From Geosiphon pyriformis uo1 (lineage: Eukaryota; Fungi; Glomeromycota): a DNA stretch of 64,000 bases. A model generated the notes under the pieces. The model was given only the letters and a program-made list of their open reading frames with translations, was not told the origin of the DNA and ran no database searches. The stretch is taken from assembly GCA_016748015.1 (NCBI GenBank), contig JAAOMT010000245.1, forward strand, positions 1 through 64,000, written 5' to 3'. Of this stretch, positions 6,101-64,000 are shown piece after piece. Made by a program: the position numbers and the translations under genes. Positions within the stretch are counted from its first letter, which is position 1; each line of letters opens with the position of its first letter.

Positions 6101-6460
6101 TAAATACAAAAATTTATATTTAATTATTAGTTCAAAAAACTTGATACAAAAATAAAAATTCAGTATTAATTAATATAACTTTTTTTTTAATATTACTGCT
6201 TATTTTAAATTTTGTAATATAAAAATTAATTATTATCTATTTAGATATAATATAATATTATATTTTAAGTATAGATTATGCATTTTTATATAATAATCAA
6301 TTATATAAACTTATATTAAGACTATACTAAGTTAAGAATTAAAACTTTTTTAACTATTTTAAAATATAAACTTAAATTTTATTTTAGTTTTAAAGGCTTT
6401 AAAACTAATTAAATTTTAAAATAGGCTTTAATTTAAACAGAATTATTTTAATTTTACAAA

Positions 6461-7886
6461 ATACTGCCTAGTTTTATACATCAAAGAAATGATTTATACT
6501 AGGTATGAATCATGTTTTTTCTATACACGACCAGCCATTTGGGCCAATCAAAACAATATTATACAGCTATATGAACCAAAATCGAATTACTTATCCCAAA
6601 AAAAAACAAACAAGTTCTGCAAAATTCAAAATATACATTAAAAGTCTTAGTTATGCCAAGCATCTTAATCACACTAGCAGAAAACTCTGAAGCCAAACCA
6701 GAGACTGATATGAGAACTAAATTATCAAGGGGAATCAAGTCATTTTTTTCCATATATGTTCAATGTTTAGCATGAACTAACCAAACATCATCCTTAAAAG
6801 CAAGACTGAGGGAGTGCACAAACTTAACAATCTCATGATTGGCAATTTTAGAATCATGGAAAATGAAAATAGTCTCACAAAACCAACCATCAAAAACACA
6901 ATCCTTAAAAAGAGCCATTGACAAAAAAGAATCAAAAATACAGATTGATAACAACTGGAGCACATCCAAAGAGAAATGAGAGAAACCCAAAAGTGACTTT
7001 CAAGAATTCACATAGAATTCCAGTATTAGATGTTAAGTAGGCTCATCAATCCTATAGGAAAACACATGATCTGATATTTCCACCTTGTTACAGTACAAGC
7101 ACAGTACACTGGAATAACATTTATCATAAAAGCACTTATGAATGGCCACAGGCAACCGACAATACAAAGCTTTTATAAAATAAGTGTGCGCATTAGCCGA
7201 GGCCTTACTGGTATAACCAGCAGCCATGTGTAAATTAAGATATCATACTAGCAAAAAATGGTGCCAATCAATCTTAGAAGTCAAATCATGAGGCAAAAAC
7301 TTTGAACCAGAACCAATCTCCCAATATACACAACAGACAGAATAATAAACATCATAAACAAAATGTCTAGAATTGCCAGAAATAATACTGTTTTTAGCCA
7401 CCAAAAAATGTTTACTTAGACGAGAAAAAAAAAACCAATCAAAAATAGACATGTCATCAGCAAATGAATCAGCATGGTCATTTCCTGGAATATCAGAATG
7501 ACTTTTCACCTTGTGCCAACTAACACTCAAATTTTTACTGTGAATAATATTAACTATATGCCAACACTCGATCCAATACTGATTACAAAAATTGGGACAT
7601 GCCAAAACCAATTCTGATTTGTAAGCATCCAAAGCAGATTGACTATTCAAAAACAAATAAACAGAACTAGATAAAGAAACATATTCTAGAACCAACACAA
7701 TAGTCTGCATTTCAGCCAAAGTAGACAACATCAAACTCAATACTTCAATGGCCAAACCTGAATTAATGTCTTCAAAAAAAACAGCAGTACCAGTCTTACA
7801 GCCAACTGTGCCTAAACTTCTTAGAGACCCATCCATATATACAGATAAACTACCAGTACCAACTTGAAACAGATGATCATATACAG
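6461..7886 (-). mobile_element. Non-LTR retrotransposon 3' fragment (LINE copy a): RNase H, Cys/His finger, ORF2 end, 3' UTR
   Basis: YMDGS...AEM...WHKVKSH...GNDHAD (RNase H); CLYCNKVEISDHVF; C-terminus SILVHIAV* matches copies b and c; interrupted at 7887 by a Gypsy LTR. Confidence 0.9.
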
Positions 7887-8870
7887 TGTTACTGGAGGTT
7901 TTTTTGGTCTCTTTTTTGTAATGTTGTTGATACTTATTTGCTGTGAATTCACGTTTTCTGGATGTGGTTGAACCTCCAGTAACTGAATTTATCTTCAAAT
8001 TATCTTCTATAATTTGAACTTGCTGGGCTTATGAATGGAATGGCCAATTCCGTGCCAGTTGCTTTATGTAGTTACATTGTAGTAAATGTTAACTCTTTCC
8101 CAAGAATTGCTCGTCTGGAAGCTTACTAAAAATATGTAGTTACTTTGCTGTGAAAGTCAACTTTTCTATAAGAATCTCGTCTGTAGGCTACTCTAATGAT
8201 TGTAATAAGAAAAGAAAGAAAAATAAAAGAAGTGTAAAAGAAATAAGATCTTATCAAAGGAAACGTTTTCTATCCAGGCCTGGAGTCACTAACAGTTTAC
8301 TGAAATTGGTAGCTAATCAATTTCGAAATGTTAGTTGGGTTTTGGGGATTTTCCAAGTACAATAATTTAGAGAATTTGGTTTTTCGAATTATTTGATATT
8401 TATTTCTTTTTGTGTGTATAAAAATGGTTTGTAAAAGATAAATCTAAAGTAAGATACATTTTCTCGAAAAGAGAAGCTCTTCTTTTATACAACTTGTCAT
8501 AACACTATTCTATGAACTCAAACTTTGCTATTTTCTACAATTTTGCTGAACTAAAGATACATTTCGGCAAACTATAAGTTATTTCGGCAAACTATTAGAT
8601 ATTTCGGTGAACTATCAATTATTTCAGCAAATTTCTACAAATTTCGGCAAACTTTTTGAATGTTACATAGTTCGGGGTATTGCATGATTGATTATTGCAA
8701 TTAGGTTACATTGGTGTTGTGTACAATTTGAGTTATTAATTAAATGATAATTTCGGACATTTTTGCTAATATAATAAGTAATCATTTAAAACGATAATAT
8801 ATGCTAATTAATGATAGGAATTATAAGATAATTTCATGCTAAATAATATCTTTAATTTCGTTTGGTAACA
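7887..8870 (-). repeat. LTR1 (3' LTR of A1), 984 bp
   Basis: TGTTAC/GTAACA termini; sense-strand TATAAAA at 8489-8483; PPT immediately adjacent. Confidence 0.95.
8541..8660. repeat. 20-bp-period tandem array in LTR U3 (core ATTTCGGCAAACT), 5-6 units; also in LTR2 and LTR3
   Basis: Units start at 8561, 8581, 8601, 8621, 8641, with a degenerate unit at ~8541. Confidence 0.85.
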
Positions 8871-9560
8871 TAACCTCCTCCTCAAGACTGAGCTCCGTCG
8901 AAGTCCAAGTACTGTCTGTTTTTTTTTCAGATAATAATCCAAAATTATTGAAGAAATTTGGTCTGAAAATTGTTAAAATTTCAGTTCTGTGAGTTTTCCA
9001 ATGTATTGAATCTTCAAAGGTTGAAAAATCGGGTTTTGTAGTATGTTTTCACAGGTATAGAATAGGTCATAAAGTCTAAGAGCGGCTCTAAGCCTGTAGT
9101 GACTGTTTGTTAATCCAGCTGTTGTCTTGAATTCATTGTGGAGTTGTTTCTGAATAGCTTCTTTTGTGAGATTTGCTGTTGTAAGTTCCAGTTTCTGTTT
9201 GTAGAGTGTTTTTCCAATGTGAAAATATCTATAGATTGGAGGATATTTAGTGTTTTCCTTATTGAGACACAGTTGAAGTTTTTGTTGAATTGTAGCATTT
9301 GATAGAATACTAATCGGAGTGAGCATTAGGTTTTCTCTTAAAGCAAGCTTTAAAAGTTTTGGCAGGTAAATTCCAGTATAACTTCTTGTGTTCTTTTTAT
9401 ATGGGTGATATTTTCGTGAGTTTGGGACTAAATTTGTAACTACTTCTGTTTGGGTATAATTAATGTGGTTTCCAGTAACAGTAATAAATAATTTGGGTAT
9501 TGTTTTTAAAGCTAACATTAGTTTTTGGGATAATTGTTGAATGTTTTGAGGAATAGTCAT
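8839..9560 (-). pseudogene. Gypsy A1 accessory ORF3 (unknown function), disrupted near its 3' end
   Basis: ORF 8973-9569 (ATG at 9560); CAA>TAA at 8973; intact homologue at 17729-18448. Confidence 0.8.
8871..8886 (-). promoter_or_regulatory. Polypurine tract of A1 (second copy 17761-17776)
   Basis: Sense CTTGAGGAGGAGGTTA abutting the LTR start TGTTAC. Confidence 0.85.
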
Positions 9561-9679
9561 TATAAGCAATTGAAAAAAAAAAAAAAATTTATTTTTGGTG
9601 TATGGGTTTTTATGTTATTTTTGTTTTTGTTTTTGTGAGATTGTTTCTAAATTATAAGAGAATGACTAGTAAAATTAAA

Positions 9680-11065
9680 TTAAGTGTTCAGGTTGGAAGG
9701 TTGTTCAATGACAACTATTGGTTCTAAGTTTTGGGGAATATCTTCGTGACTGACCAAAAGGGAATGTGTACCAATTTGTGAAATTAATGGTTCAGGATTG
9801 TTTCTGGAATGATAGTGTTTCAAACGATCTCCATGTGCAACTTTTGCTAGGATTTTGTCATCAAGTCTTAGCTTGTATGATCCATTGCCTAGGATTTTAT
9901 GGATAAAGAATGGTCCATCCCATTTATTTTCAAATTTTCCACTCCATTGTTTTTCAGCTTTAGTTCTGTGTAAGAGAACTTTGTTTCCAATTTTGAATTT
10001 ATTGGAGACTGAAGGCAATTTGTCATCATGCCATTCTTTTTGTTGAGCTTGGAAGTGTTCAATATGGGTGGCTGCTATTCGTCGTTTTCCTTCCAATGTA
10101 CTAAGCAGAGTGTAGGCTCTTCGCTGAAGCGTTTCTTGGAAATTGTTTTTATCGATCAGTTGTGTTGAGTATGTTTCCACTGTGAAACTAATTGGTAATA
10201 TTGCCATCCTTCCATAAGTTAAATCAAATGGTGTGTGTTTCGTGGTATCTTGTTTTAATGTCCTATATGCTAGTAACACTAATAGAATAAAGAGATCCCA
10301 TTCTTGCTCAAAATCGGTTGAGACTTTGGCTAATGACTCACACAATGTTCTGTTAAAACGTTTCACAAGTCCGTTTGTTTGTGGATAATAGGGCGAAGAC
10401 AGAGGTCTTTTAACATTGAATTGTTCACAAATTTCTTGTATCAGGTTGTTTACAAAGTGTGTTCCCTGATCGGATAAAAGTTCAATTGGACATCCATGTC
10501 TACAAATGATGTCTTCGTAGATAAAATTTGCTACTGATTTTGCATCTGCTCATTGAATGGCTCTGGCTTCAGGCCATTTAGTAAGATAGTCTACAGCTAC
10601 TGCAATATAATGGTTTTCTTGAGTGGTAATAGATAGTGGTCCGACTAAATCGATACCAACTCTGTCAAAAGACTGTCTAACTTTGATTGGATTTAAAGGT
10701 TCTGTAGGGTGAGTTTCTTCTCTTCTTTGACAACTATCACAAGATTCGACATATTCGTGAATGTCTTTTCTCATTCAAGGCCAAAAGTAGTATTCTAGTG
10801 TTCTTTGGGTGGTGCTATTTTTTCCGAAGTGTGCTGATGAAGGATCCGAGTGCATGTTGTATAAAATGGTCTCTTTTTCCTGTTCTTGTATTAATCTGAG
10901 TGGTTTGGTTGGGTTTTTGAAATTTCGATAATAGATAATGTTGTTGTATAGAAAATATTGTTTGGCTTGTTGTTGTAACTGATGTTTTTTGTCTGGGGAC
11001 CAATCTGTTGGGATTGTTAATGTCTCCAAATATTGTTTAAGATTGTTGTAGTTTTCGGGGTTCAT
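9680..11065 (-). pseudogene. Gypsy A1 integrase (HHCC, DDE core, GPY/F), separate ORF, with premature stops
   Basis: H-SDPSSA-HFG...CDSC; IDLVGP; SDQGTHF; HPQTNGLVE-like; WDGPF; CGA>TGA stops at 10775 and 10550. Confidence 0.9.
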
Positions 11066-11113
11066 TGTTTGTTGTTTTGATGCTGTTAATTCAATTGGGT
11101 GTTGGTTTTGTTT

Positions 11114-14100
11114 CTAATCTTGCCTTATCCTTGAGAGACAATCAACGTTGGTGTGGAGTTTTCCTGGTTTGTAGTGTACAATGTATCAATAATTAGCTAA
11201 AAATCCTGTCCATTGGGTTTGTTTTGCGTTCAGCTGGGTGTTTTTGTTTTAAAGCCATTTAAGTCCAATATTATCAGTGATAATATCAAATTCTTTGGGT
11301 CTGAGGTAAAAGTTAAAGTAATGTAGAGCCCAGATTACTGCTGCGGTTTCTAATTCTGTTGTGGGATAGTTCTTTTTGGCTGGCTTTAATGTTCTACTAG
11401 CATAAGCAATTACTCGCTTATTTCCATTGTCATCTAACTGTGATAAGATGGCACCAAAGGCAGTATAAGAAGCATCAGTTGCTAACCGGAATTGGTTGCT
11501 GAAGTCTGGGTAGGCGAAGATTGGGGCTGTTGTGAGTTTTTTCTTGAGTATCTTGAAGGCATTTTGGTGTTCTTTTGTCCATTTGTATTCAACATTTTTT
11601 GTAGTGAGCTGATTGAGAGGTTTTGCAATTTCTGAGAATCCTTTGATGAATTTTCGGTAATAGGATGCTAATCCAATAAATCCTCTTAATTCTGTGGTAT
11701 TTCGTGAAGTTTTGAAGTTTTTAACAGTACTGATTTTTCCGGGGTCTGGTTTAATTCCATCTTTGTTAACAATGTGACCAAGAAAAGCTAAACTTGTTTT
11801 TCCAAAGTAGTATTTTTCAATGTTCAGTTTCAATCCTGCTTTCCGTAATCATTGAAAAACTTCTCGCAGGTGAATTAAATGTAGCTCGAAAGATGGTGAA
11901 TAAACATCAGTGTCATCAAGATAAACTACTACTGATTTCCAAAGGAGGCTTTTGTAAACAACATCCATGAGTCTTTGGAATGTTGCTGGTGCATTGCATA
12001 ATCCAAAAAGCATTACATTGAACTCATAATTTCCTCCTTGAGTGGTGAATGCTGTTTTAAAGCGGTCTTTGGGATCCATAGCAACTTGTCAGTATCCATT
12101 CTCTAAATCTAATGTTGAAAAGTATTTGGACTTTCCAAGGGCATCCAACATGTCATCAATTCGGGGAAGAGGGTAGGCATCCCCAATAGTGACACTGTTA
12201 AGTTGTTAGTAATCAACACAAAATCGTATCTTTCCATTTTTCTTTTTAACTAGAACCACAGATGAGGCCCATGGGCTCATTGATGGTTGAATAAGCCTAT
12301 TGTTAAGCATCCATTGTACTTCTTCTTGGATAAATTGGTGACTTTCTGGAGCAATTCGGTAGGCTTGTTGTCGCCTGGGTTTGGCATCTCCTATATAGAT
12401 TTGGTGTTGAACCAAATCAGTTCTTCCTAAGTCATTGTTGTTTTTGGCAAAGATATCAGCAAATTCTGCAATTAGTTCTTTGAGCTGGGTCTGTTGTTGT
12501 AGTTCAAGTTGTCCCATGTTGATTCGAGATAGTTTTTCCATGACAACATGGTAGTTTTCAGAGCTAGAGTTTGGGTTGATTTTTGGTAGTGAATGTCCAA
12601 TAATTTCAGAGAAATCGGAGACTGTTTGGGGTAATTTTTGTTGAAATATATTACTGTGAATAACTTCAATTTCTAAATTATTTAATAAAATTATGGGGTA
12701 ATTATTGGGGTTGTAAAAAGTAACTCGGACTTTCTTTGTTCCTTCTGGAATATAAATGTTTGGGATCAAAATATTATGTTCCAAGCAGACTTGTTCATTG
12801 GACTCAAAAATTTGTTGTGTGATTGTTGGCTTTGTGCAAGTGTAAATTTCTGAATGTTCTCCAAAGGGTGAGATGATAATCGGTTGTGGAAGTCTGAGAA
12901 TCTGGTGGGATTCGTTCTGAGTGTTAAGAGCTATATTAACTGGAACTGTGAATCATCCAGTTGAACCAAAACCTTGGGTTCCTTTATCGTTTTTTCCTAA
13001 TTGTTCTCTTTGATTGACTAGTTGCAAACCTGAAATGTTGATTAAGGGTAGGTAAATAGCTTGGGCAATTTTTTCAGTATGTTCGATCTTGAATGGTTTG
13101 TCAGTCTTATTTTGAAGCATCACTGTTATGTCTCCCGTATATCCAGCATCAATTATTTCTCCTCTAACATTGATTTCTTTGCTTGCCAGAGAGGACCGAG
13201 AGGCAATTTGAACCATTGCTCCTGGTGGGATTTCGAGTGCAATTTTGAGGTTGATTTTTGTAAGAGATTTGGGTTTGAGAACAAGAGTATTCTTGCCTGG
13301 ATATCTTAGGTCATATCCAGCATCAATTTCGTGTGCTTTTTCAGGTTTTATTCCTTGTCCGTTGTTGTTGAAGTATTTAAGTTGTAAGGCAGGCTGATTT
13401 TCGATAAGGTAGATAGGTGTTGTTTTAATTTCTTCTATTTCTTCAGGTTCTCCAAATTCAATTTCATTCTCATCATTTTCGCTGGACAAGGGGGTACTAA
13501 GATCATAGCATTCAGGACACCATTGTTTATTGCAAGGCATAATGTATTCTTCACATAGCCTAATGTTCATTTGCTCTAATCGTTGAATTTGAGCTTCTTG
13601 GGTCAGGCAGATGTGACTTGCAATTTGGTGATAGACTTCTACTTCATCTTCGTAATCAAATCCAGCTAATTCCATAGTGTATTCAATGTATTCTGCTTCC
13701 TTCATCTGATGAACATCTTCTTTGGTAGCTCTATTAATTAATGCTATTGCTAAGTCGAAAATCATCTCAGCATCATGAAGGTAGTGATAGAGTTTGTTGA
13801 AAGCACTGTTGTATGCTGCATTAAAGGGTGTTCCTCTTTTTACTTTTTCTGAAATTGATAAGGCATATTGGCAGGTCTGATCACAGATGCCTCCTCTCAT
13901 TGCTACATCAATCCAATTGCATTCTTCCGGTAGCATATCTCCACAAATCAAACAAGCAGTGTTGTCCCATTTTCCACTCCTTTTTATTAAATGGCCCCAT
14001 CGCTCTCTGTGGCAAGCCTTGCAGTAATAACAAATGTGATTCTTATATTCTTCTTCAGGTGAAATGCAGGCTCCCATTGATGATAGTTTCTTGTGGCAGT

Positions 14101-16732
14101 CTTTACATTTAAGGGGAATATAGGGGCATTGTTTTCTTGGTTCGGGTTTTGAGTAAGGTATATTCCATTCAGAGGTTTCGGGTTTAGTGTGTGTGGTAAA
14201 ATGTTCTTGTTCTGTTTCATTGGCCCAATTGGACGTTGATCCAAGAGCCATAAATGTTTCGATTATTGGTTTTTCTTCTTTTGGTTCAAATTCAAAAGCT
14301 GGGGCTTTTTCAGAGTGTTTGTTGAATGTACCACAAATGACAGGTATCCGGGCGTGTTGTCCTTGGTAGGAGATTGTTAACTCTTGTGTTTCCCAATTCA
14401 GATTAGCATTGGCTTTTTGAAGCCAATTATTTCCAATGAGAGCTTGGTACTAGGGTGCATTTATTACAAGAACTTTGACTAGAATGGTAATTCCATTAAG
14501 AGTGAATGGGAAATTGTCAATTTCTCTCACTGGTGTCTTTTTCATGTCATCAGCAGTAATGATTACTGTTTGAGCTGGTCGGTCGACATTTCTTTTCAAC
14601 TGTTGCATTAACTGGTAGGTAATAATGCTTCCGGCAGATTCACTGTCTAGGATCAAGCAAATTGGCTTTCCTTCTACTTCAGCTTCTGCATATATTACAG
14701 TGATGGCTTTTTGTTCATTAGCTGCTGCATTGCTAAGCAAGAATGGTGATTCATTTGCTTCAAATTCAAAAGAAAAGATATCAGAGAGATTGGCATTTTT
14801 AGCAATTCGGACTGGTGGAATAGTGGTGTGGTTATGAGAAGAGTTTCGTTGTTGTTGTGCTGCAGCTCTATTTTCTGAGAGTACAGTATGGTGAAAATCC
14901 TGTTCTTCCAGCATTGTTAAATAACTGGGTTGAGTGTGGTAATGGTTGGGTCTTGATTGAGTGGTATTTCGAAGAACCAATTGGTTGTTCGAACTGATTC
15001 TACTGTTGTTTACTTGGTATCGGTTTTGTGGTGTGAATTGATTTTGTGTAATCAGTCTTCAAGCAGGTACTTGATAATGTTGTGTGGGTGGTTGTTGGTA
15101 TTGCTGTTGGATTGGTTGTGGGACAGGCTGATAATAGTTATTTTGGTATTGGGGTCTTGGTGGATAGTAAGTTGGTGGTAATAGTTGATAATAAGATTGC
15201 TGTGGTGGAGAGTAACATTGATTATCCCTATTTTGTTGATCTCATTGCAGCTTTCTGCAATCTCTTTTCCAGTGGCCAGAGATTCCACAGTAATGGCAAT
15301 TTTGGGGCTGGTTATTGGAAAGTGGTGCAAAGTTATTTTGATTTCATCTTTGGGGTGGTTGATATCTTTGGGATTGTTGTTGTTGGTTGGTAAAATAGTT
15401 TTCAATCTTCTTTGTGAGTTGGTCAATTTTTTTCTCAGCTGCTGAGCTGGTTTCTCAAATTGCCAAATTTACAAGTTTTGTACAATTGGCTTCTTTTATG
15501 GCCATTTCATATCTTTTCGCATGCTGTATTGCAAAGTTTAAATCTTCTGGCACATGTGGGCGAACCTTTTTAATTAGTTTATCTTTTAGACCAGCAATAA
15601 ATTGATCCAAGATTTGAGCATCGGAATAATAATTATTTGTCTCGAGTTGGCAAATCCATCTGAGAAGTTTGTTGAATTTCCCAATATAAGTCAAAACGGA
15701 TTCGGAGGGTTCTTGTTTGATATTTTGAAAACGATTGCAAAGAGTGATAGAGGTATTATTGTCGGTGAACTGTTCAAGAAAGGCTGCTTTGAAAGCATTT
15801 CAATCATTGAATGGAGCGGCAAGGTTTTCAAACCATTCTCCTGCTGTTCTTTTGAGAAAGTAGGGAATTGTTCTTAACATTCTGGCAGCGTTCCATCCAT
15901 TTGCATCTCCAGCTTTAGTAACTTGGTCAAGCCATTCTTGGGGACTGGTCTCAATATCTTTTCTATTAAATTCAGAGATTTTTGCGATGTATGTTGTCAT
16001 TTTGTTTTCTTCGTTTTCACTGTCTATTGATTTTTCTTTGGTTATTTCAGAGTTGTTTTCTTTGTTTGCTGCTGTCTCAGAGTGTTCACTTTGATTTTCA
16101 GCTAGAAAATCAAGGAGATTGGAACTAGTTTGAAGGGGTTCTTGTTGTTTGGTGGAACTTCTGAGTAATGTAAAATCTTTTGGTCTTGCAAATCGATTCA
16201 AGGGTAAATTAGATGTTTGTGCTTGTGCGAGTGAAGCTGGAAAAGGTGTGATAGTAAGTGGAAGTTTTGAACTGGTTCCTTGTTCAGGTGTTTGTAAATG
16301 TTTGGCAGTTGTTTTCGGTAGTGTTGGAGTATTTGGGATGGTTCTTGAATATTGCTTTAATTTGTTTTTGCCTTTGTTGCTTGTTTCTGTTTCCAATTCA
16401 AAATCAATGGTGTATTGAGACTGCACTGGGTATGTTTCTTCACAGTATTTGATAATATTAAAATTAAGTTTGTGAAAGTAAGTGGCAAGTGTTTCACTAT
16501 TAAGATCTTCAGTTCCCAACTGTGAATAGTGTGCTAAATTATTGTAAAGATTGCTTCTAACTTCTGAGATATTGTAATTTCTAAAAAGATAATTGTTGAT
16601 GCGGTTTTCAATGTATTGGTATACTGATTTCTTGACAACTTCAATTCCGTTTAGATTGTTGAATCTTTGCTTGCAGTGGGTGTAAATTGATTGGTAATAC
16701 TCTAGAGTTGTTGCGTCTGGTGTGGTCTCCAC
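11114..16732 (-). pseudogene. Gypsy A1 gag-protease-Cys-rich domain-dUTPase-RT-RNaseH polyprotein; single frame with multiple stops
   Basis: ORF fragments starting at 16732, 15694, 14980, 14251, 12784, 12079 and 11833 share one frame. Motifs: CHYCGISGHWKRDC knuckle, LILDS, DAGYDL/SRSS/IIDAGY/GFGSTG, YLDD, TDAS...YPTTELE. Confidence 0.92.
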
Positions 16733-16757
16733 TTTGAATTTGTTTTTGCTGTGTTAT

Positions 16758-16775
16758 TTCTGTGGGAGAACACCA
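16758..16775 (-). promoter_or_regulatory. Primer-binding site of A1 (A2 copy 25625-25642); tRNA identity not assigned
   Basis: TGGTG(T/C)TCTCCCA begins 2 nt inside the LTR end; TGG is complementary to tRNA CCA. Confidence 0.75.
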
Positions 16776-16777
16776 AA

Positions 16778-17760
16778 TGTTACTGGAGGTTTTTTTGGTC
16801 TCTTTTCTGTAATGTTGTTGATACTTATTTGCTGTGAATTTACATTTTCTGGATGTGGTTGAACCTCTAGTAACTGAATTTATCTTCAAATTATCTCCTA
16901 TAATTTGAACTTGCTGGGCTTATGAGTAGAATAGCCAATTCCATGCCAGTTGCTTTGTGTAGTTACGTTGTAGTAAACGTCAACTCTTTTCCAGGAATTG
17001 CTTGTCTGGAAGCTCACTAAAAATGTGTAGTTACTTTGCTGTAAAAGTCAACTCTTCTACAGGAATCTCGTCTGTAGGTTACCCTAATGATTATGATAAG
17101 AAAATAAAAGAAAATAAAAGAAATGTAAAAGAAATCAAATTTTGTCAAGAGAAACGTTTTCGATCCAGACCTGGAGTCACTAACAGTTTTATTAAAATTG
17201 GTAGCTAATCAATTTCAAAACGTTAGTTGGGTTTTGGGGATTTTCCAAGGGCAATAATTAAAGAATTTGGTTTTTCAATTATTTGATATTTATTTGTTTT
17301 TGTGTGTATAAGAACAGTTTTTAAGAGATAAATCTAAAGTAAGATACATTTTCTCGAAGAGAGAAGCTCTTCTTTTATACAACTTGTCGTAATACTATTC
17401 TATGAACTTGAACTTTGCTATTTTTTACAATTTCGCTGAACTAAAGATGCATTTCGGCAAACTACAAGTTATTTCTGCGAACTATTAAATATTTCGGTGA
17501 ACTATCACTTATTTTAGCAAATTTCTATAAATTTCAGCAAACTTTTGAATGTTACATAGTTCGGGGTATTGTATGATGGATCATCACAATTAGGTTATAT
17601 TTGTGTTGTGTACAATTTGGGTTATTAATTAAATGATAATTTCGGACATTCTTTGCTAATGTAATAAGTGATAATTTGAAACAATAATATGTGTTAATTA
17701 ATGATAGGAATTATAAGATAGTTTCATGCTAAATGATATCTCTAATTTTATCTGGTAACA
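16778..17760 (-). repeat. LTR2 (shared central LTR), 983 bp
   Basis: TGTTAC...GTAACA; A1 PBS on one side and A2 PPT on the other. Confidence 0.95.
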
Positions 17761-18448
17761 TAACCTCCTCCTCAAGACTGAGCTCTGTCGAAGTCCAAGT
17801 ACTGTCTGTTATTTCCAGATAATAATCCACAATTATTGAAGAAATTTGGTCTGAAAATTGTTGAAATTTTAGTTCTGTAAGCTTTTCAATGTATTGAATC
17901 TTCAAAGGTTGAAAAATTGGGTTTTGTAGTATGTTTTCACAGGTGTGGAATAGGTCATAAAGTCTAAGAGCAGCTCTAAGCCTGTAACGACTGTTTGTTA
18001 ATCCAGCTGTTGTCTTGAATTTATTGTGAAATTGTTTCTGAATAGTTTCTTTTGTGAGGTTTGCTGTTGTAAGTTCCAGTTTCTGTTCGTAGAGTGTTTT
18101 TCTGATGTGAAAATATCTATAAATTGGAGGATATTCAGTGTTTTCCTCATTAAGGCACAGTTGAAATTTTTGTTGAATTGTAGCATTTGGTGGAATACTA
18201 ATCAGAGTGAGCATTAGGTTTTCTCTTAAAGCAAGTTTTAAAAGTTCTGGCAGGTGAATTCCAGTATAACTTCTTGTGTTCTTTTTATATGGGTGATATT
18301 TTCGTGAATTTGGGGCTAAATTTGTAACTACTTCTGTTTGGGTATAATTAATGTGGTTTCCAGTAATAGTAATGGATAATTCGGGTATTGTTTTTAAAGC
18401 TAACATTAGTTTTTGGGATAATTGTTGAATGTTTTGAGGAATAGTCAT
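17729..18448 (-). CDS. Gypsy A2 accessory ORF3, 239 aa, open; runs through the PPT into LTR2
   Basis: ORF 17729-18457, first ATG at 18448; homologous to A1 ORF3 and to the family B ORF at 60682-61340. Confidence 0.75.
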   Translation of the reverse strand: MTIPQNIQQLSQKLMLALKTIPELSITITGNHINYTQTEVVTNLAPNSRKYHPYKKNTRSYTGIHLPELLKLALRENLMLTLISIPPNATIQQKFQLCLNEENTEYPPIYRYFHIRKTLYEQKLELTTANLTKETIQKQFHNKFKTTAGLTNSRYRLRAALRLYDLFHTCENILQNPIFQPLKIQYIEKLTELKFQQFSDQISSIIVDYYLEITDSTWTSTELSLEEEVMLPDKIRDII

Positions 18449-18562: not shown

Positions 18563-19949
18563 TTAAGTGTTCAGGTTGGAAGGTTGTTCAATGACAATTA
18601 TTGGTTCTAAGTTTCAGGGAATATCTTCGGGACTGACCAAAGGGGAATGTGTACCAATTTGTGGAATTAATGATTCAGGATTGTTTCTGGAATGATAGTG
18701 TTTCAAACGATCTCCATGTGCAATTTTTGCTAGGATTTTGTCATCAAGTCTTAGCTTGTATGATCCATTGCCTAGGACTTCATGGATAAAGAATGGTCCA
18801 TCCTATTTATTTTCAAATTTTCCACTCTATTGTTTTTCAGCTTTAGTTCTGTGTAAGAGAACTTTGTTTCCAATTTTGAATTTATTGGTGACTAAAGGCA
18901 ATTTGTTATCATGCCGTTCTTTTTGTTGAGCTTGGGAGTGTTTAATATGGGTGGCTGCTATTCGTCATTTTTCTTCCAATGTGCTAAGCAGAGTGTAGGC
19001 TCTTCACTGAAGTGTTTCTTGGAAGTTGTTTTCATCAATCGGTTGTACTGGATATGTTTCCACTGTGAAACTAATTGGTAACATTGCTGTCCTTCCATAA
19101 GTTAAATCAAATGGTGTGTGTTTTGTGGTATCTTGTTTTAATGTCCTATATGCTAGTAACACTGATGAAATAAAGAGATCCCCTTCTTGCTCAAAATTGG
19201 ATAAGACTTTGGCTAATGACTCACACAATGTTCTGTTAAAATGTTCCACAAGTCCATTTGTTTGTGGATGGTAGGGCGAAGACAGAGGTCTTTTGACATT
19301 GAATTGTTCACAAATTTTTTGTATCAGGTTGTTCACAAAGTGTGTTCCTTGATCGGATAAAAGTTCAATTAGACATCCATGTCTACAAATGATGTCTTTG
19401 TAGATGAAATTTGCTACTGATTTTGCATCTGCTCGTTGAATGGCTCTGGCTTCAGGCCATTTAGTAAGATAGTCTACAGCTACTGCAATATAACGGTTTC
19501 CTTGAGTGGTAATAGATAGTGGTCCAACTAAATCGATACCAATTCTGTCGAAAGGCTGTTCAACTTTGATTGGATTTAAAGGTTCTGTAGGGCGAGTTCC
19601 TCCTCTTCTTTGACAACTATCACAAGATTCGACATATTCGTGAATGTCTTTTCTCATTCGAGGCCAAAAGTAATATTCTAATGTTTTTTGGGTGGTGCTA
19701 TCTTTTCCGAAGTGTGCTGATGAAGGATCTGAGTGCATATTGTATAAAATGGTCTCTTTTTTCTGTTCTTGTATTAATCTGAGTGGTTTGGTTGGGTTTT
19801 TTGAAATTTCGATAATAGATAATGTTGTCGTATAGAAAATATTGTTTGGCTTGTCATTGTAACTGATGTTTTTTGTCTGAGGACCAATCTGTTGGGATTG
19901 TTAATGTCTCCAAATATTGTTTGAGATTGTTGTAGTTTTCAGGGTTCAT
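18563..19949 (-). pseudogene. Gypsy A2 integrase, separate ORF, with stops and a +1 T near 19800
   Basis: ORF 19004-19738 carries HHCC and the DDE core; ATG (MNPENY) at 19949. Confidence 0.9.
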
Positions 19950-19998
19950 TGTTTGTTGTTTTGATGCTGTTAATTCAAATGGGTGTTGGTTTTGTTTT

Positions 19999-22900
19999 CT
20001 AATCTTGCCTCATTCTTGAGAGACAATCAACATTGGTGTGGAGTTTTCCTGGTTTGTGGTGTACAATGTATCGGTAATTAGCTAAAAATCCTGTCCATCG
20101 GGTTTGTTTTGTGTTTAGCTGAGTGTTTTTGTTTTGAAGCCATTTAAGTCCAATATTATCAGTGATAATATCGAATTCCTTGGGTCTGAGGTAAAGATTG
20201 AAGTGATATAAGGCCCAGATTACTGCTGCGGTTTCTAATTCTGTTGTGGGGTAGTTCTTTTCAGCTGGCTTTAATGTTCTACTAGCGTAAGCAATTACTC
20301 GCTCATTTCTATTGTCATTTAACTGTAATAGAATGGCACCAAAGGCAGTATAAGAGGTGTCAGTTGCTAACCGGAATCAGTTGCTGAAATCTGGGTAGGC
20401 GAGGATTGGTGCTGTTGTGAGTTTTTCCTTAAGTATCTCGAAGACATTTTGGTGTTTTTCTGTCCATTTGTATTCAACATTTTTAGTAATGAGCTGGTTG
20501 AGGGGTTTTGTAATTTCTGAGAATCTTTTGATGAATTTTCGGTAATAGGATGCTAATCCAATAAATCCTTTTAATTCTGTGGTATTTCGTGGAGTCTTGA
20601 AGTTTTTGACAGTACTAATTTTTCCGGGGTCTGGTTTAATTCCATCTTTGTTAACAATGTGACCAAGAAAAGCTAAACTTGTTTTTCCAAAGTAGCATTT
20701 TTCAATGTTCAGTTTCAATCCTGCTTTCTGTAATCATTGAAAAACTTCTCACAGGTGAATTAAATGTAGCTCGAAAGATGGTGAATAAACATCAGTGTCA
20801 TCAAGATAAACTACTACTGATTTCCAAAGGAGGCCTTTGTAAACAACATCCATGAGTCTTTGGAATGTTGCTGGTGCATTGCATAATCCAAAAGGCATTA
20901 CATTGAACTCGTAATTTCCTCCTTGAGTGGTGAATGCTGTTTTGGGGCGGTCTTTGGGATCCATAGCAACTTGCCAGTATCCACTCTCTAAATCTAATGT
21001 TGAAAAGTATTTGGACTTTCCAAGGGCATCCAACATGTCATCAATTTGGGGAAGAGGGTAGGCATCTCCAATGGTGACACTGTTGAGTTGTCGGTAATCA
21101 ACACAAAATCGTATCTTTCCATTTTTCTTTTTAACTAGGACCACAGGTGAGGCCCATGGGCTCATTGATGGTTGAATAAGCCCATTGTTAAGCATCCATT
21201 ATACTTCTTCTTGGATAAATTGGTGACTTTCTGGGGCAACTCGGTAGACTTGTTGTCGTCTTGGTTTGGCATCTCCTGTATAGATTTGGTGTTGAACCAA
21301 ATCAGTTCTTCCTAAGTCATTGTTGTTTTTGGCGAAAATGTCAGCAAATTCTGCAATTAACTCTTTGAGCTGGGTCTGTTGTTGTGGTTCAAGTTGTCCC
21401 ATGTTGATTCGAGATAGTTTTTCCATGACAACATAGTAGTTTTCGAAGCTGGGGTTTGGGTTGGTTTTTAGTATTGAATGTCCAATAATTTCAGAGAAAT
21501 CGGGGACTATTTGGAGTAATTCTTGTTGAAATATATTACTGTAAATAACTCCAATTTCTAACTTATTTAATAAAATTATGAGGTAATTATTGGGGTTGTA
21601 AAAAGTAACTCGAACTTTCTTTGTTCCTTCTGGAATATAAATGTTTGGGATCGAAATATTATGTTTCAAGCAAACTTGTTCATTGGACTCAAAAATTTGT
21701 TGTGTGGTTGTTGGCTTTGGGCAGGTGTAGATTTCCAGATGTTCTCCAAAAGGTGAGATAGTAATTGGTTGTGGGAGTCTGAGAATCTGGTGGGATTTGT
21801 TCTGAGTGTTAAGAGTTATATTAACTGGAACTGTGAACCATTCAGTTGAACCAAAACCTTGGGTTCCTCTATCGTTTTTTCCTATTTGTTCTCTTTGATT
21901 GACTAGTTGCAAACCCGAAATGTTGATTAAGGATAGGTAAATAGCTTGGGCAATTTTTTCAGCATGTTCAATCTTGAATGGTTTGTTAGTTTCATTTTGA
22001 AGCATTACTGTTATGTCTCCCATATATCCAGCATCAATTATTCCTCCTCTGACATTGATTCCTTTGCTTGCTAGAGAGGACCAAGAGGCGATTTGAACCA
22101 TTGCTCTTGGTGGGATTTTGAGTGCAATTTTGAGGTTGATTTTTGTGAGAGACTTGGGTTTGAGAACAAAAGTATCCTTGCCTGGATATCTTAAGTCATA
22201 TCTAGCATCAATTTCGTGTGTTTTTTCAGGTTTTATTTCTTGTCCGTTGTTGTTGAAGTATTTAAGTTGTAAGGCAGGCTGATTTTTGATAAGGTAGATG
22301 GGTGTTGTTTCAATTTCTTCCATTTCTTTAGGTTCTCCAAATTCAATTTCATTCTTATTATTTTCGCTGGGCAAGGGAATATTAAGCGCATAGTATTCAG
22401 GACACCATTGTTCATTACAAGGCATAATGCATTCTTCACATAGCCTAATGTTCATTTGTTCTAATCATTGAATTTGAGCTTCTTGGGTCAAGTAAGTATG
22501 GCTTGCAATTTGGTGGTAGACTTCTACTTCATCTTCATAATCGAATCCAGCTAATTCCATAGTGTATTCAATGTATTCTGCTTCCTTCATTTGACAAACA
22601 TCTTTTTTGGTAGCTCCATTAATTAATGCCATTGCTAAGTCAAAAATCATCTCGGCATCATGAGAGTAGTGATAAAGATTGTTGAGAGCACTGTTGTATG
22701 CTGCATTAAAGAGTGTTCCTCTTTTTATTTTTTCTAAAATTGATAAAGCATATTGGCAGGTCTAATTGCAGATGCCTCCTCTCATTGCTACATCAATCCA
22801 ATTGCATTCTTCCGGTAGCATATCTCCACAAGTCAAACAAGGGGTGTTGTCTCATTTTCCGCTCTTTTTTATTAGATGGCCCCTTTGCTCTCTGTGGCAA

Positions 22901-25602
22901 GCCTTGTAGTAATAACAAGTATAATTCTCATATTCTTCTTCAGGTGAAATGCAGGCTCCCATTGACGATAGTTTCTTGTGGCAGTCTTTACATTTAAGAG
23001 GAATATAGGGGTGTTGTTTCCTTGGTTCGGGTTTTGAGTAAGGTATATTCCATCCAGAGGTTTTGGGTTTAGTGTGTGTGGTAAAATGTTCTTGTTCTGT
23101 TTCATCGGCCCAGTTGGACATTGATCCAAGAGCCATGAATGTTTCAATTATTGGTTTCTTTTCTTCTGGTTCAAATTCAAAAGCCGGGGCTTTTTCAGAG
23201 CGTTTGTTGAATGTACCACACATGGCAGGTACCCGGACATGTTGTCCTTGGTAAAAGATTGTTAACTCTTGTGTTTCCCAATTCAGATTAGCATTGGCTT
23301 TTTGAAGCCAATTATTTCCGACAAGAGCTTGGTACTGGGATGCGTTCATTACAAGAACTTTGACTGGAATGGTAATTCCATCAAGAGTAAACGGAAAATT
23401 GTCAATTTCTTCTACTGGTGTCTTTTTCATGCCATCAGCAGTGACAATTACTGTTTGAGCTGGTTGGTCGACATTTTTTTTCAACTGTTGCATTAACTGG
23501 TAGGTGATAATACTTCCGGCAGATCCACTGTCTAGGATCAAGCAAATTGGCTTTCCTTCTACTTCAGCTTCTGTGTACATTGCAGTGATGGCTTTTTGCT
23601 CATTAGCTGCTGTATTGCTAAGCAAGAATGGTGATTCATTTGCTTCAAATTTGAAAGGAAAGATATCAGAGAGATTGGCATTTTCAGCAATTCGGGCTGG
23701 TGGAATAGTGATGTGATTATGAGAAGAGTTTTGTTGTTGTGCTGCAGCTCTACCTTCCAGGAGTACAATATGATAAAAATCCTGTTCTTCTGGCATTGTT
23801 AAATAACTGGATTGGGTGTGGTAGTGGTTGGGTCTTGGTTGAGTGAAATTTCAGGAAACCAATTGGTTGTTTGGACTGATTCTATTGTTGTTTACTTGGT
23901 ATTGGTTTTGTAGTGGGAATTGATTTTGTGTAATCAGTCTTCAAGCAGGTACTTGATAATGTTGTGTGGGTGGTTGTTAGTATTGCTGTTGGATTGGTTG
24001 TGGAGCGGACTGATAATAGTTATTTTGGTACTGGGATTTTGGTGGATAGTAAGCTGGTGGTGATGGTTGATAATAAGATTGTGGTGGAGAGTAACATTGA
24101 TTACCCCTGTTTTGTTGGTCTCGCTGTAGCTTTCTGCAATCTCTTTTCCAGTGGCCAGAGATTCCACAGTAATGGCAATTCTGGGGCTGGTTATTGGAAA
24201 GTGGTATAAAGTTATTTTGATTTCGTCTTTGGGGTGGTTGATATCTTTGGGGTTGTTGTTGTTGTTGATTGGTAAAATAGTTTTCGACCTTCTTTGTGAG
24301 TTGGTCAATTTTTTCCTCAGCTGCTGAGCTGGTTTCTCCAATTGCCAAATTTACAAGTTTTGTATGGTTGGCCTCTTCCATGGCCATTTCATATCTTTTC
24401 GCATGCTGTATGGCAGAGTTTAAATCTTCTGGCACATGTGGACAAATCTTTTTAATTAGTTTATCTTTTAGACCAGCGATAAATTGATCCAAGATTTGAG
24501 CATTGGAATAATAATCATTTGTCTCGAGTTGGCAAATCCATCTGAGAAGTTTGTTGAATTTCCCAATATAAGTCATAATGGATTCAGAGGGTTCTTGTTT
24601 GGTATTTTGAAAACAATTGCGAAGAGTGATGGAGGTATTATTGTCGGTGAACTGTTTAAGGAAGGCTGCTTTGAAAGTGTTCCAATCATTGAATAAGGCG
24701 GCCAGGTTTTCAAACCATTCTCCTGCTGTTCCTTTAAGAAAGTATGGAATTGTTCTTAACATTCTGGTGGCATTCCACCCATTTGCATCTTCGGCTTTAG
24801 TAACTTGGTCGAGCCATTCTTGAGGACTGGTCTCGATGTCTTCTCCATTAAAGTCAGGGATTTTTGCGATGTATGTTGTCATTTCGTCTTCTTCATTTTC
24901 ACTGTCTATTGATTCTTCTTCAGTTATTTCAGAGTTGTTTTCTTTGTTTGCTGCTGTCTCAGAGTGTTCACTTTGATTTTCAGCTAAAAAATCAAGAAGA
25001 TTGGAACTAGTTTGAAGGGGTTCTTGTTGTCTGGTGGAACTTTTGAGTGATATAAAATCTTCTGGTCTTGCAAATCGATTCAAGGGTAAATTAGGTGTTT
25101 GTGCTTGTGCAAATGAAGCTGGAAAAGGTGTGATAGTAAGTGGAAGTTTTGAGCTGGTTCCTTGTTCAGGTGTTTGTAAATGTTTGAATGATATTTTGGG
25201 AGTATTGGGTGTTGTGTGAACAGGTCAGTTATCTTTTTGTCTTTTGTTGCTACTGGTTTCAGGTTCAGATTCGAGTTCAAAGGCAAATTGTGTATTTGCA
25301 GGATATTTTTCTTCACAGAACCGAATGATATTATAATCGAGTTCCTTAAAATAAGTAGCGCAAGCTTCAGCACTAATGTTTTCTGATTCAGTATTGGAAT
25401 AGTGTATGTTCTTAAGAAGATCTCTTTTAACTGTTGTAATGTTGTAGTTCCCAAAGAGGTAGTCGTTAATTCAATTTTCGATGTATTGAAAAAGTGTTTT
25501 CTTGAAAGCTATGATTCCATCGCGTATTTCAAATCGTTGTTTGCAGTGTGTATAAATCGATTGATAGTACTCTAAAGTTGTAATGTCTGAGGCAGTCGCC
25601 AC
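19999..25602 (-). pseudogene. Gypsy A2 gag-protease-Cys-rich-dUTPase-RT-RNaseH polyprotein with premature stops
   Basis: ORF fragments starting at 25083, 23796, 22650, 22455, 21195 and 20718 share one frame; LILDSGS, RGTQGFGST, RFCVDYR, YLDD. Confidence 0.92.
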
Positions 25603-25644
25603 TTTAAATTTGTTGCTGTGTTATTTCCATGGGAGAGCACCAAA

Positions 25645-26625
25645 TGTTACTGGAGGTTTTTGGTCTCTTTTCTGTAATGTTGTTGATACTTATTTGCTGT
25701 GAATTCATGTTTTCTGGATGTGGTTGAACCTCTAGTAACTGAATTTATCTTCAAATTATTTCCTATAATTTGAACTTGTTGGGCTTATGAGTAGAATGGC
25801 CAATTCCGTGCCAGTTGCTTTATGTAGTTACGTTGTAGTAAATGTCAACTCTTTCCCAGGAATTGCTTGTCTGGAAGCTCACTAAAAATGTGTAGTTACT
25901 TTGCTGTGAAAGTTAACTCTTCTACAGGAATCTCATCTGTAGGTTACCCTAATGATTATAATAAGAAAATAAAAGAAAATAAAAGAAATATAAAAGAAAT
26001 CGAATTTTGTCAAGAGAAATGTTTTTGATCCAGGCCTGGAGTCACTAACAGTTTTACTGAAATTGGTAGCTAATCAATTTCAAAACGTTAGTTGGGTTTT
26101 GGGAATTTTCCAAAGGCAATAATTAAAGAATTTGGTTTTTCAATTATTTGATATTTATTTGTTTTTGTGTGTATAAGAACGGTTTTTAAGAGATAAATCT
26201 AAAGTAAAATACATTTTCTCGAAAAGAGAAGCTCTTCTTTTATACAACTTGTCGTAATACTATTCTATGAACTTGAATTTTGCTATTTTCTACAATTTCG
26301 CTGAACTAAAGGTGCATTTTGGCGAACTACAAGTTATTTCTGCGAACTATTAGATATTTCGGTGAACTATCACTTATTTCGGCAAATTTCTATAAATTTC
26401 AGCGAACTTTTGAATGTTACATAGTTCGGGGTATTGCATGATAGATCATCGCAATTAGGTTACATTTGTGTTGTGTACAATTTGGGTTATTAATTAAATG
26501 ATAATTTCGGACATTCTTTGCTAATGTAATAAGTGATAATTTGAAATGATAATATGTGTTAATTAATGATAGGAATTATAAGATAGTTTCATGCTAAATG
26601 ATATCTCTAATTTCGTCTGGTAACA
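25645..26625 (-). repeat. LTR3 (5' LTR of A2), 981 bp
   Basis: TGTTAC...GTAACA; shares diagnostic variants with LTR2. Confidence 0.95.
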
Positions 26626-60681: not shown

Positions 60682-63600
60682 TTATTCTCTTATTTTAATA
60701 TTGAGCTCTATCAAAATTTCCTAAATCTCCTAACTCTACTTCTCCATTTTTGAGTATTTCTTGAATTTCTTTTTTGAGAATTACTTGTGTTATCTTGTTC
60801 AAATTGGGCATTGGTTATTTTTTCCATTTGGTTAACAGTAACAGTATTCATTTCTGTGTTGAGTAAAATTTCTGGTCAATCTTAAAATCTAGTATGTATC
60901 CAATAAATGGCTCTTGTTTGTGTGGTCAAATTGTTCTTTCCAATAAATTGTTTTAGTTGTTGCAGTATTGCTGTATCAAATAATTATTTTGTTTTATCCA
61001 TATATAAATTTTGAATATTCAAGTGTTGTCTCAAATAAAAGTAACAAAAGTTTCTTGGAAATTGTTGTATCTACTAATTCTAAATTTCTATAGTTAACTC
61101 TTAGTATTGAGTAATTTTTGGTTGTGCTTCTATTGCCAATTTCACTTTTGTGATTATTTTGTCAACAGTGTTTTCTGTTTTTCTCTGTACTTTATCCTGT
61201 GGTCTTTTTCTGGTGGTTGTGTATCTGATAGTTTTTTGATTGATTGTGATTTTCATTTCTTGTTGTTGAATTAATTGGAAGAGTTATTGTGCTAATGAGT
61301 GAATATTGTCAGTAATTTCTATTTTTTTGATGTCTTTCATTACATCTACTCTGTCTTTATATACTCTTTTTATTGTTCAATTTTATGTGTTTGTTTCAAT
61401 GATTATGATTGGTTCCAGATCTCATGAAATCTCATCTGGTTAGACTAGTATTTGCTGTACTCTCAGTTGTGGAATATTATTCATAGATAATGATACTGTA
61501 TGATAATATGGTTTTAGTCAATCACTATGTGCTGCTTTGGCCAAGATTTTGTTGTTTCATCTTAATTTATAAGCTTCATTTCCTAGAATTTCTTCTATGT
61601 AAAATGGTCTATCCCATTTGGAGTCGAATTTTCTACTTCATTGTTTTTCTGCTTTGGTACAATGTAAAAGTATTTTGTCTCTAATCTTGAATTCAACTGG
61701 TTTATCTGGTAATTAGTTATTATGTTATTCTTTTTGTTTTTCTTGTAACTTTTGAATATTATTAGCTGCTCTTTGCCTTTTGTTTTCTAGTGTTTCTATT
61801 ATGTCATATGTTCTTTTCAACAATGTTTCTTGAAAATTATCTTCTGTTATTGGTTCAGTTGGATATGTGTTGACTTCTATCTCTACTGGTAATATTGCTG
61901 TTCTACTATACACTAATTCAAATGGTGTCACTTGTATAGTATCTTGCTTCATTGTCTGATAAGCAAATAATACTAATAGTAAACAAATCCCATTTATCCT
62001 GGTTTTTTTGGCTGATCTTGGCAATTGCTTTACACAATGTTCTATTGAATCTTTCAATTAAGCCATTTGTTTATGGATGATATAATAATGATAATGGTCT
62101 TTTAATTCCAAATCTTTGACTTAATTCTGACAATGTTCTATTTACAAAGTGAGTTCCTTGATCTAATAGTAATTTTTTTGAACATTCATGTTGACAAATC
62201 AAATCTTGATGGACAAATTTGGCAATGAATTCTGCATCTGTTCTTTGAATGGCTTTTGCTTCTGGCCATTTAGTGAGATAATCCATGACTACTGCAATAT
62301 ATTTGTTGTCTCTGCTAGTGATTGTTAATGGTTTGACTAAGTCAATTCCAATGTAATCAAATAGTTGTTCTATTCTGATTGGTTTTAATGGTTCAGTCAG
62401 TCTTGTTCCTTTTCTTCTTTGACAAGTATTACAATTCTAAACATATTGAATGATATCTGAATATATTGATGGCCAATAGTATCTATTTTTGGTTCTTTTT
62501 ATGGTTGCTTCTTTATGAAAATGTTCTGCTGTTGGGTCTGAGTGCATATTGAATAGTATTGTCTCTTTTTCTGGTTCTGTAACTACTCTGATTGGTTGAT
62601 CTGAATTTCTTTTGTTTTTCTGATAAAATATATTTTGATGGTTAATAAAGTATTTTGATTGTTGTTTTATGTTGTTTCGTTTCTTTTGAGATAATTTTTT
62701 TTTAAACTGTTAAGTATTTATATAATGTTAAAATTGTTGATATTTTTGTGTGTTCATTTTTTGTTATATATTTATGTTTTCAATTTGTTTGGATTTGTTA
62801 TATTTTTGGGTTAAAATGCTCAGATTTGTTTCATTTATAACAAATTATCAGCATTTTTATTTTTTTTTCCCTTTTTATAGTGTACTGTAAAAGTATATAG
62901 TAAAAGTACTATTTTTCATCTTGCATGTCAATCATCTCCAAATTCTTGCTTCTGGATTAAAGTCAATCCTTTGTGATCAGTGTGCATCTTAAATTTTTGG
63001 CTTAAGTATTTTTTTCATTTCATAACTGCCCAATAGATTGCTAAGTGTTCTAATATTGGTGTTTTATAATTTTTTTCAGCTGGAGTCAAACCTCAGCTGG
63101 TATATGTAACTGGATGTTTTCTTCCATTTGGTTCTCTCTGAGATAGTACTGCTCCTAATATTTAACCTAACACATATGTGGTGATAATGAATGGCTTACT
63201 ATGATCTGAATATATCAACACTGGAGCTTAAATAAGCTTTTTTCTTAAAATGTCAAAAGCTTCTTGCTGAATTTCTGTCCATTTGTATTTTATATTCTTG
63301 GTTTGGAAATGGTTAAGTGGCTGAGCTATTTTAGAAAAGTCTTTAATGAAGTGATGATAATAGCCTGTGAATCCCAAGAATGATTTTAATTTGGTTAAGT
63401 TGGTTGGTACCAGAAATTTTTTTACTATCTTTATTTCTCTGAATTCATTTTGATTCTGTTTTTGCTCATTACATGTTCTAAGAATTTCAGTTCTGTTTTG
63501 CTAAAAAAACACTTAGTAGTATTTAACTTTAGTTCTGCTCATCGTAGCCTTTCAAATACTTGCTGTAGATAATAGATGTAATTATTGAACATTCTTAAGA

Positions 63601-64000
63601 ATACGTTGGTATTGTCCAAATACATGACTACTAATTTCCATAGCAGTCTAGTATATACTATTTCCATTAGCCATTGAAATGTGGCTGGTGCTTTCATTAA
63701 GCTGAATGGCATGACTTCAAATTCAAAATTTCCCTCTTTTGTGGTAAATGCCATTTTCTCTTTGTTGGCTGAATTCATGGCTACTTGCTAGTAGTCACTA
63801 TCTAAATTCAATGTTGAGAACCATTTCTTTTCTTTGAAAGCATCAAACAATTTCTGAATTCATGGAGTTGGGTAACTGTCTCCACAAATAACTCTATTGA
63901 GTTTTCTATAATCCACACAAAAGTGAATCTTTCCATTCTTTTTCTAAACTAGTACCACTGGTAATGACCATGGGCTTATTGATGGCTGAATTAGTCTGTT

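Follow-up and report, generated by a model that had tools for sequence, protein, structure and literature searches.

A separate integrase reading frame in a Ty3/Gypsy-type retrotransposon lineage of Glomeromycotina

The window analysed here is a stretch of 64,000 nucleotides (nt) from the fungus Geosiphon pyriformis uo1 (assembly GCA_016748015.1, contig JAAOMT010000245.1, positions 1 to 64,000 of the forward strand). It carries copies of Ty3/Gypsy-type long terminal repeat (LTR) retrotransposons in which the integrase (IN) occupies an open reading frame (ORF) of its own, behind the stop codon of pol. Judged from sequence comparison, this separate ORF is real and lineage-wide and not a product of decay: every locus with an IN at least 40% identical to that of the window and an RNase H on the same contig is split (11 of 11, the complete element L013 included), and the claim of the original prediction, made from the window alone, thus holds across the lineage. 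The interpretation favoured, with slightly more confidence than doubt, is a Gypsy-type lineage of Glomeromycotina with a separate IN and a third frame (ORF3), in which IN would be made by restart of translation after the pol stop and packaged outside Gag-Pol.

The integrase junction in the window

The copies belong to two families, A (copies A1 and A2) and B, and all lie on the minus strand. In A1, gag-pol ends at TAG 11116-11114, four residues past the DxLSR motif of RNase H, and a 48-nt spacer leads to the IN ATG at 11065-11063. The corresponding elements are TAG 20001-19999, 49 nt and ATG 19949-19947 in A2, and TGA 62822-62820, 62 nt and ATG 62757-62755 in B; the positions given earlier for all three are exactly reproduced. 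The two family A spacers differ by one extra A in A2. Upstream of the junction Pfam finds capsid, zinc knuckle, protease, dUTPase, reverse transcriptase (RT) and RNase H, and downstream integrase with H2C2, rve and a weak SH3 match. A tandem array of the form LTR-internal-LTR-internal-LTR (window 7887-26625) has A1 and A2 as its two units; its LTRs are about 980 nt long, end in TGTTAC...GTAACA and are 91-95% alike, and no matching target-site duplication is present at its outer ends. The features are as follows.

11114..16753, minus: A1 gag-pol, one frame broken by point-mutation stops; the start is the open-frame limit and approximate
11066..11113, minus: A1 pol-IN spacer, 48 nt, A/C-rich, without ATG or predicted structure
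9680..11065, minus: A1 integrase ORF, 461 codons, own ATG (context ACA ATG A), two mutational TGA stops
9561..9679, minus: A1 IN-ORF3 spacer, 119 nt, without ATG
8842..9560, minus: A1 ORF3, uncharacterised, premature stop at 8975, 2-nt indel near 8926
7887..8870, minus: A1 3' LTR, preceded by the polypurine tract GAGGAGGAGG
16778..17760, minus: LTR common to A1 (5') and A2 (3'), with a primer-site-like TGG 2 nt downstream
19999..25644, minus: A2 internal region, beginning at the 5' LTR, including gag-pol and ending with the TAG
19950..19998, minus: A2 pol-IN spacer, 49 nt
18563..19949, minus: A2 integrase ORF from ATG 19949, frameshifted near 19802; end approximate
17729..18448, minus: A2 ORF3, open, 239 amino acids (aa)
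25645..26625, minus: A2 5' LTR
62820..64000, minus: B RT-RNase H remnant, running off the window and ending at the TGA
62758..62819, minus: B pol-IN spacer, 62 nt, without ATG
61400..62757, minus: B integrase remnant from ATG 62757; end approximate
60795..61320, minus: B ORF3 remnant with homology to A ORF3; both ends approximate

All of these copies are dead. The IN of A1 contains two in-frame TGA codons, that of A2 one 1-nt frameshift and that of B many breaks. The gag-pol frame of A1 holds 12 stops, nine of which read as sense in A2, and 574 of the 675 substitutions between the two copies are C/T or A/G changes. Three stops are common to both, at 15061, 11851 and the junction, so that the caveat of shared mutational stops elsewhere, raised at the outset, applies at two sites. 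Because the copies are dead and A1 and A2 share these other stops too, the window alone cannot separate a programmed stop from decay. One of the common stops, the TGA at 15059-15061 (minus) between zinc knuckle and protease, may have arisen from CGA by mutation or may serve as a programmed stop for gag. The family A dUTPase domain lies between protease and RT (12956-13345, minus, and the matching part of 21202-22464, minus) and is preceded by a Cys/His-rich region; unlike family A, the related loci gave no dUTPase match.

The split layout across relatives

A search with the A1 integrase returned 910 proteins of 253-807 aa at E <= 1e-20. Among the best 120 of these, 98 start with a Met that lies exactly 11 residues ahead of a conserved aromatic position, the second residue being D, E or N in all 98, and in most of the remaining 22 the start is called at a later position. 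DNA context was examined for 101 loci (numbered with the prefix L), 100 of which have an IN match: 23 are fused, 18 were flagged as split and 59 have no RNase H within 1.5 kb upstream, the last counting as uninformative unless noted. In all fused loci IN is less than 40% identical to the query. In 11 of the 18 flagged as split IN starts at the conserved Met. The other seven (L029, L038, L040, L047, L067, L078, L097), with IN lacking the in-register Met, were dropped as broken fused copies or cases of an unrelated neighbour.

Across 16 junctions the pol-IN spacer ranges from -8 to 727 nt, with frames 0, 1 and 2 in four, five and seven cases, and the pol stop is TAG in six, TAA in seven and TGA in three. 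These counts leave out L084, because its pol extension is frameshifted, and L028, because it falls outside the main group. L013 is a whole element: its LTRs are 96% alike over 300 nt, and its open ORFs encode gag-protease (951 aa), RT-RNase H-extension (1103 aa), IN (427 aa) and ORF3 (230 aa). The three-ORF layout first proposed therefore extends across the lineage, but some relatives have four ORF segments because of an in-frame TGA between protease and RT.

It is extremely improbable that IN is normally fused to Pol, with the junction stop either read through or present as a mutation that dead copies have inherited. In favour of this reading are the A1 spacer, open and in frame, the two other stops common to A1 and A2, and four proteins, 41-50% identical, that join IN to upstream domains and came from a search for longer, joined forms (47 matches). 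All four are gene-finder models: both the RNase H end and the IN start are missing from two, RT from one and the IN start from the fourth (P0125). P0126, at 38% identity to the query, is the first protein that is clearly fused. Moreover, 12 of the 16 spacers are out of frame, the in-frame spacer of L008 contains a second stop, and intact relatives are split. With spacers in all frames, an intact yet split L013 and all three stop codons in use, both readthrough and inherited mutation are excluded, and the earlier caveat of readthrough or a shared CAG>TAG mutation is thereby refuted.

Further copies of family A were read through Logan contigs, in which one DNA run (X1) contains the stretch; no RNA run was listed as containing it, and runs X2 and X3 gave no aligned contigs. 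From X1, 1063 contig records were aligned to window 10950-11250, and substitutions were listed at >=3%. None of the 32 listed falls on the junction stop or the IN ATG, while the A1-private stop at 11188 differs in 58% of depth. Insertions of 1 nt occur in the pol-IN spacer (3-4 contigs each), and depth is lower at the junction than beside it. A sense codon at the stop and spacers always in multiples of three, which would point to an ordinary fused pol, are thus found neither in these copies nor among the 16 junctions.

In L003, L009 and L022 the upstream ORF is a C-terminal extension of pol, as in L006. This acidic, Cys/His-rich extension, present in part of the lineage, covers 315-587 aa after RNase H (L006:3497-4438, L013:4950-6705, L003:2-544, L084:422-1131) and has no Pfam match in these four loci. 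The fungal retrotransposon contigs L084, L085, L086 and L088 are placed within prokaryote genome records, likely through contamination. A search of viral contigs with the integrase gave three weak, bacterial-type matches only.

Hosts and origin of the split

Named IN homologues come from Rhizophagus, Geosiphon, Cetraspora, Gigaspora and Paraglomus, and the named hosts of the lineage are Glomeromycotina; the closest homologues, 81-86% identical, are Geosiphon gene models. In a quick RT-RNase H tree of 83 rows, 13 split rows and two gene models form one clade (Shimodaira-Hasegawa-like approximate likelihood-ratio support, SH-aLRT, 99), with the split L028 outside it. A single origin of the split is likely. 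Families A and B are sisters (RT-RNase H 51% identical, support 99/95) and therefore not independent witnesses of that origin: of the two divergent families described earlier both are split, but they do not represent independent origins. The nearest rows in the RT tree, which is built without named reference clades or a Copia or BEL outgroup, are fused RT-RNase H-IN proteins. L028 (1-6702) itself has RNase H and integrase split, an in-register Met and an RT outside the main group; two long overlapping ORFs of 425 and 584 aa, neither with a Pfam match, follow its integrase.

RNA elements at the junctions and ORF3

In one IN subgroup, nine loci have in common a 40-nt motif immediately ahead of the IN ATG. 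This motif forms a hairpin made up of a short outer stem, a purine-rich bulge of 11 nt, an inner stem that includes a bulged A, and a loop of 3 nt. In the alignment 93% of cells pair, 8 of 13 pairs change on both sides and none of 500 shuffles scores as high, a test that related sequences can beat; slid controls reach at most 44% paired. L025, which lies outside the model, matches it at 47.9 bits with new G-C to A-U changes. Rfam gave no match for the hairpin loci or the window, and the hairpin is absent from the window and without a match in viral contigs.

Hairpin upstream of the IN ATG: L003:582-629, L005:180-228, L006:4459-4506, L009:486-541, L014:172-221
Hairpin upstream of the IN ATG: L019:5-51, L022:489-547, L085:158-210, L002:15-72, L025:16-62
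In-frame TGA CTA between protease and RT: L001:870-875, L013:3358-3363, L017:1585-1590, L088:2879-2884

The sequence TGA CTA is a stop-codon context for readthrough. It is present in all four loci that have a stop between protease and RT, and likely marks a programmed readthrough that follows protease and not gag; in L006 and family A no stop lies there. In L008 (2898-2919) a TTTAAAA run, possibly a -1 frameshift site, lies where gag and protease overlap out of frame. The lineage shows three or more gag-pol arrangements.

ORF3 has a core of about 145 aa. It lies behind IN in 10 loci, with an out-of-sample occurrence in L011, and its profile, which included the window row, matches 476 clusters at 50% identity. 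The L004 protein is predicted to fold into a helical bundle (predicted local distance difference test, pLDDT, 91.6), and searches of Pfam, PDB and BFVD gave no match (best Z 4.9); Atlas matches had low counts and carry no weight here. The 239-aa ORF3 of the window is probably a distant member of the family. It reaches a profile-profile probability of 67% (E 5e-5) and 17.8 bits in a leave-one-out comparison, against 12.8 for the best of 500 shuffles; it scores only 5.9 bits with a larger profile, and its own model has a pLDDT of 52. The family B remnant aligns to A ORF3 with a local score of 96, the best of 300 shuffles giving 67. As a guess, ORF3 might be a helper for packaging or targeting IN.

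How integrase may be made and packaged

In the favoured interpretation, translation of pol would end after RNase H and ribosomes on the genomic RNA would restart at the IN ATG; IN would then be carried into particles through RNA or a partner protein, and not inside Gag-Pol. Binding of IN to genomic RNA is a speculative route of entry, with the hairpin of the one subgroup and ORF3 as equally speculative candidate packaging parts. Reinitiation would couple IN output to the ribosomes that complete RT, so that the level of IN would not exceed that of RT, as would also be expected in relatives with RT behind the TGA-CTA stop. Among the mechanisms considered, which include the reinitiation, IRES and subgenomic RNAs proposed at the outset, reinitiation is given about half of the weight. 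In the 13 pol-IN spacers of at most 200 nt ATG occurs twice against 14.5 expected, and in 10 IN-ORF3 spacers not at all against 7.4 expected (single-base shuffles in both cases), and at the IN start position -3 is a purine in 14 of 16 and position +4 a G in 13 of 16. Such ATG-poor spacers and these start contexts suggest that ribosomes scan the spacers. Overlaps of start and stop at both junction types (L017 pol-IN, -8; L005 IN-ORF3, -4) would favour restart after termination. Splice acceptors are not enriched, YAG being present in 11 of 24 against 11.0 expected.

The same layout could instead be served by subgenomic mRNAs for IN and ORF3, made from internal promoters in or before the spacers or by splicing from the 5' LTR, as for env and foamy-virus pol (foamy Pol being made from a spliced mRNA; PMC3705302, in part). 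This is possible, though less probable. It accounts for the long, ATG-rich spacers of L001 and L013 and the TATA-like run in the latter, the ATG-poor last 30-190 nt would be 5' untranslated regions (UTRs), and a branch point with YAG is present in 8 of 24 against 4.8 expected (P=0.08). Yet 5 of 16 junctions have no YAG within 80 nt of the ATG, two extra RNAs would be required, the start/stop overlaps at both junction types go unexplained, and no common promoter-like word exists outside the hairpin subgroup. Internal initiation, with ribosomes recruited to the spacer by the hairpin or, as in the window, by unstructured A-rich RNA, is unlikely. The hairpin varies on both sides of most pairs, has its end between a few and about 40 nt ahead of the ATG and recurs in L025, and the window spacers are A-rich and unfolded by prediction. 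Against this, the hairpin is present in 10 of 42 sources searched, all of one IN subgroup, the folding of single sequences does not surpass that of shuffles (z -0.1 to -0.75), and the hairpin may instead be a protein-binding or packaging site.

Several observations weigh against the favoured account of a single-origin lineage making IN by reinitiation. The L001 (365 nt) and L013 (727 nt) spacers hold 7 and 12 upstream ATGs, and therefore could not be crossed by simple scanning reinitiation. ATG-poor spacers are equally compatible with 5' UTRs of subgenomic RNAs; the depletion was tested by single-base shuffles only, and GTA is as depleted as ATG in the short pol-IN spacers (3 against 14). Calicivirus termination-reinitiation, driven by the termination upstream ribosomal binding site (TURBS), uses UGGGA upstream of the stop and a start within a few codons of it; the corresponding TGGGA is missing before the stop in 15 of 16 junctions. 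Most spacers measure 30-190 nt, whereas reinitiation in SART1 falls with distance (PMC3708506, in part). As to the genomic evidence, run X1 is perhaps the window's own source, and contigs drop rare variants. Careful trees of 50 and 49 rows keep the split clade in 579 and 606 of 1000 bootstrap trees, the fused P0126 nests inside it with low support in one of them, and L028 is split yet outside the main group.

A bolder version of the reinitiation account is doubtful. In it a whole, old lineage of LTR retrotransposons would have given up the Gag-Pol polyprotein as the route for integrase. Here one RNA would work as a eukaryotic operon, with gag-protease, readthrough to RT and restarts for IN and ORF3; the hairpin and ORF3 would bring IN into the particle, and the free IN cistron would be a kind of Gypsy-Ginger1 intermediate.

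Other repeats in the window

Another repeat family is present in several copies, 66-74% alike and on both strands (26959-31727, 39842-46836, 52326-57566, 6459-7886). One part of it has a weak RNase H match, and the copies are probably old non-LTR elements.

Novelty and significance

The accessible text of a fungal survey places integrase inside pol (PMC3248453), and that of two papers on transposons of mycorrhizal fungi treats Gypsy or LTR abundance with no mention of layout (10.1101/2021.03.30.436303; PMC11952901). A literature search, with Repbase, GyDB, subscription journals and supplements outside its range, found no description of the split-IN layout. The split layout is a genuine variant of the Ty3/Gypsy organisation that has apparently not been described before and is fixed in an old lineage of fungi; also new are the covarying hairpin before the IN ATG in one subgroup and the in-frame TGA-CTA between protease and RT in four relatives.

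In LTR retroelements polyprotein cleavage sets the amount and packaging of IN, and a lineage without IN in the polyprotein must have another rule for both. As a natural system it lends itself to the study of serial reinitiation behind very long ORFs, and among the sequences mis-joined by gene finders in genomes of mycorrhizal fungi it is the dominant kind. A stand-alone Gypsy IN ORF in an LTR element also bears on whether Ginger1 came from Gypsy or the reverse (PMC2836005, in part), although the IN tree obtained here does not link them.

Comparison with known systems

The lineage resembles Ty3/Gypsy elements (Metaviridae) in its LTRs, primer site and polypurine tract, and in the order of capsid, zinc knuckle, protease, RT, RNase H and integrase. 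The gag domains Retrotrans_gag, Ty3_capsid and zf-CCHC are found, as is the order protease, RT, RNase H, integrase. In the ICTV profile of the Metaviridae integrase lies inside pol (PMC7879559), whereas here, in the window and the close loci alike, it is a separate ORF and not a pol domain. A third ORF without Pfam match after integrase and, in family A, a dUTPase between protease and RT are further differences. Judged by these domains, the lineage probably derives from a Ty3/Gypsy element and would work like one, without being a canonical member. Its ORF3, small and predicted to be all-helical, would be unlike an Errantivirus-type env in size and fold.

Ginger1 shares the stand-alone Gypsy-like integrase ORF. 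The N-terminal Y-P-Y-Y pattern ascribed to Ginger1 and some Gypsy integrases (PMC2836005, in part) was matched by eye at IN residues 12-46. By contrast, Ginger1 has terminal inverted repeats and no RT, and the present elements have LTRs and a gag-pol with RT; no inverted repeats were found in L003, L004, L006, L013 and L084. An origin from Ginger-like transposases receives no support from the IN tree, in which integrases with flanking inverted repeats and without RT (L095, L097) form a separate clade. These two loci (L095:5691-12428, L097:7363-10738) hold integrase genes in pieces, flanked by inverted repeats of 110 nt (96%) and 73 nt (88%), respectively, and are Ginger-like DNA transposons in eukaryotic contigs filed in bacterial metagenome-assembled genomes.

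Termination-reinitiation at an overlapping stop-start is described for SART1 (PMC3708506, in part) and an unconventional translation mechanism for LINE-1 ORF2 (PMC6937734, in part). As would apply in the present lineage, a retroelement enzyme is encoded in the second ORF of one RNA, but SART1 and LINE-1 are non-LTR elements whose second ORF is the RT; here RT is separated from IN, and a spacer is found at most junctions. The junctions also differ from TURBS, with UGGGA in 1 of 16 and a stop-start overlap in 1 of 16. Hepadnaviruses, for their part, are not known to have an integrase. According to the accessible text of PMC3705302, foamy virus and hepatitis B virus make Pol apart from the capsid protein and package it via genomic RNA; in foamy virus IN stays part of Pol, and packaging is restricted to the precursor. 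The present lineage shares the separation of enzyme and capsid protein, and differs from foamy viruses in that IN is separate and does not stay on Pol. By analogy with these viruses, packaging of the free IN would proceed through the genomic RNA.

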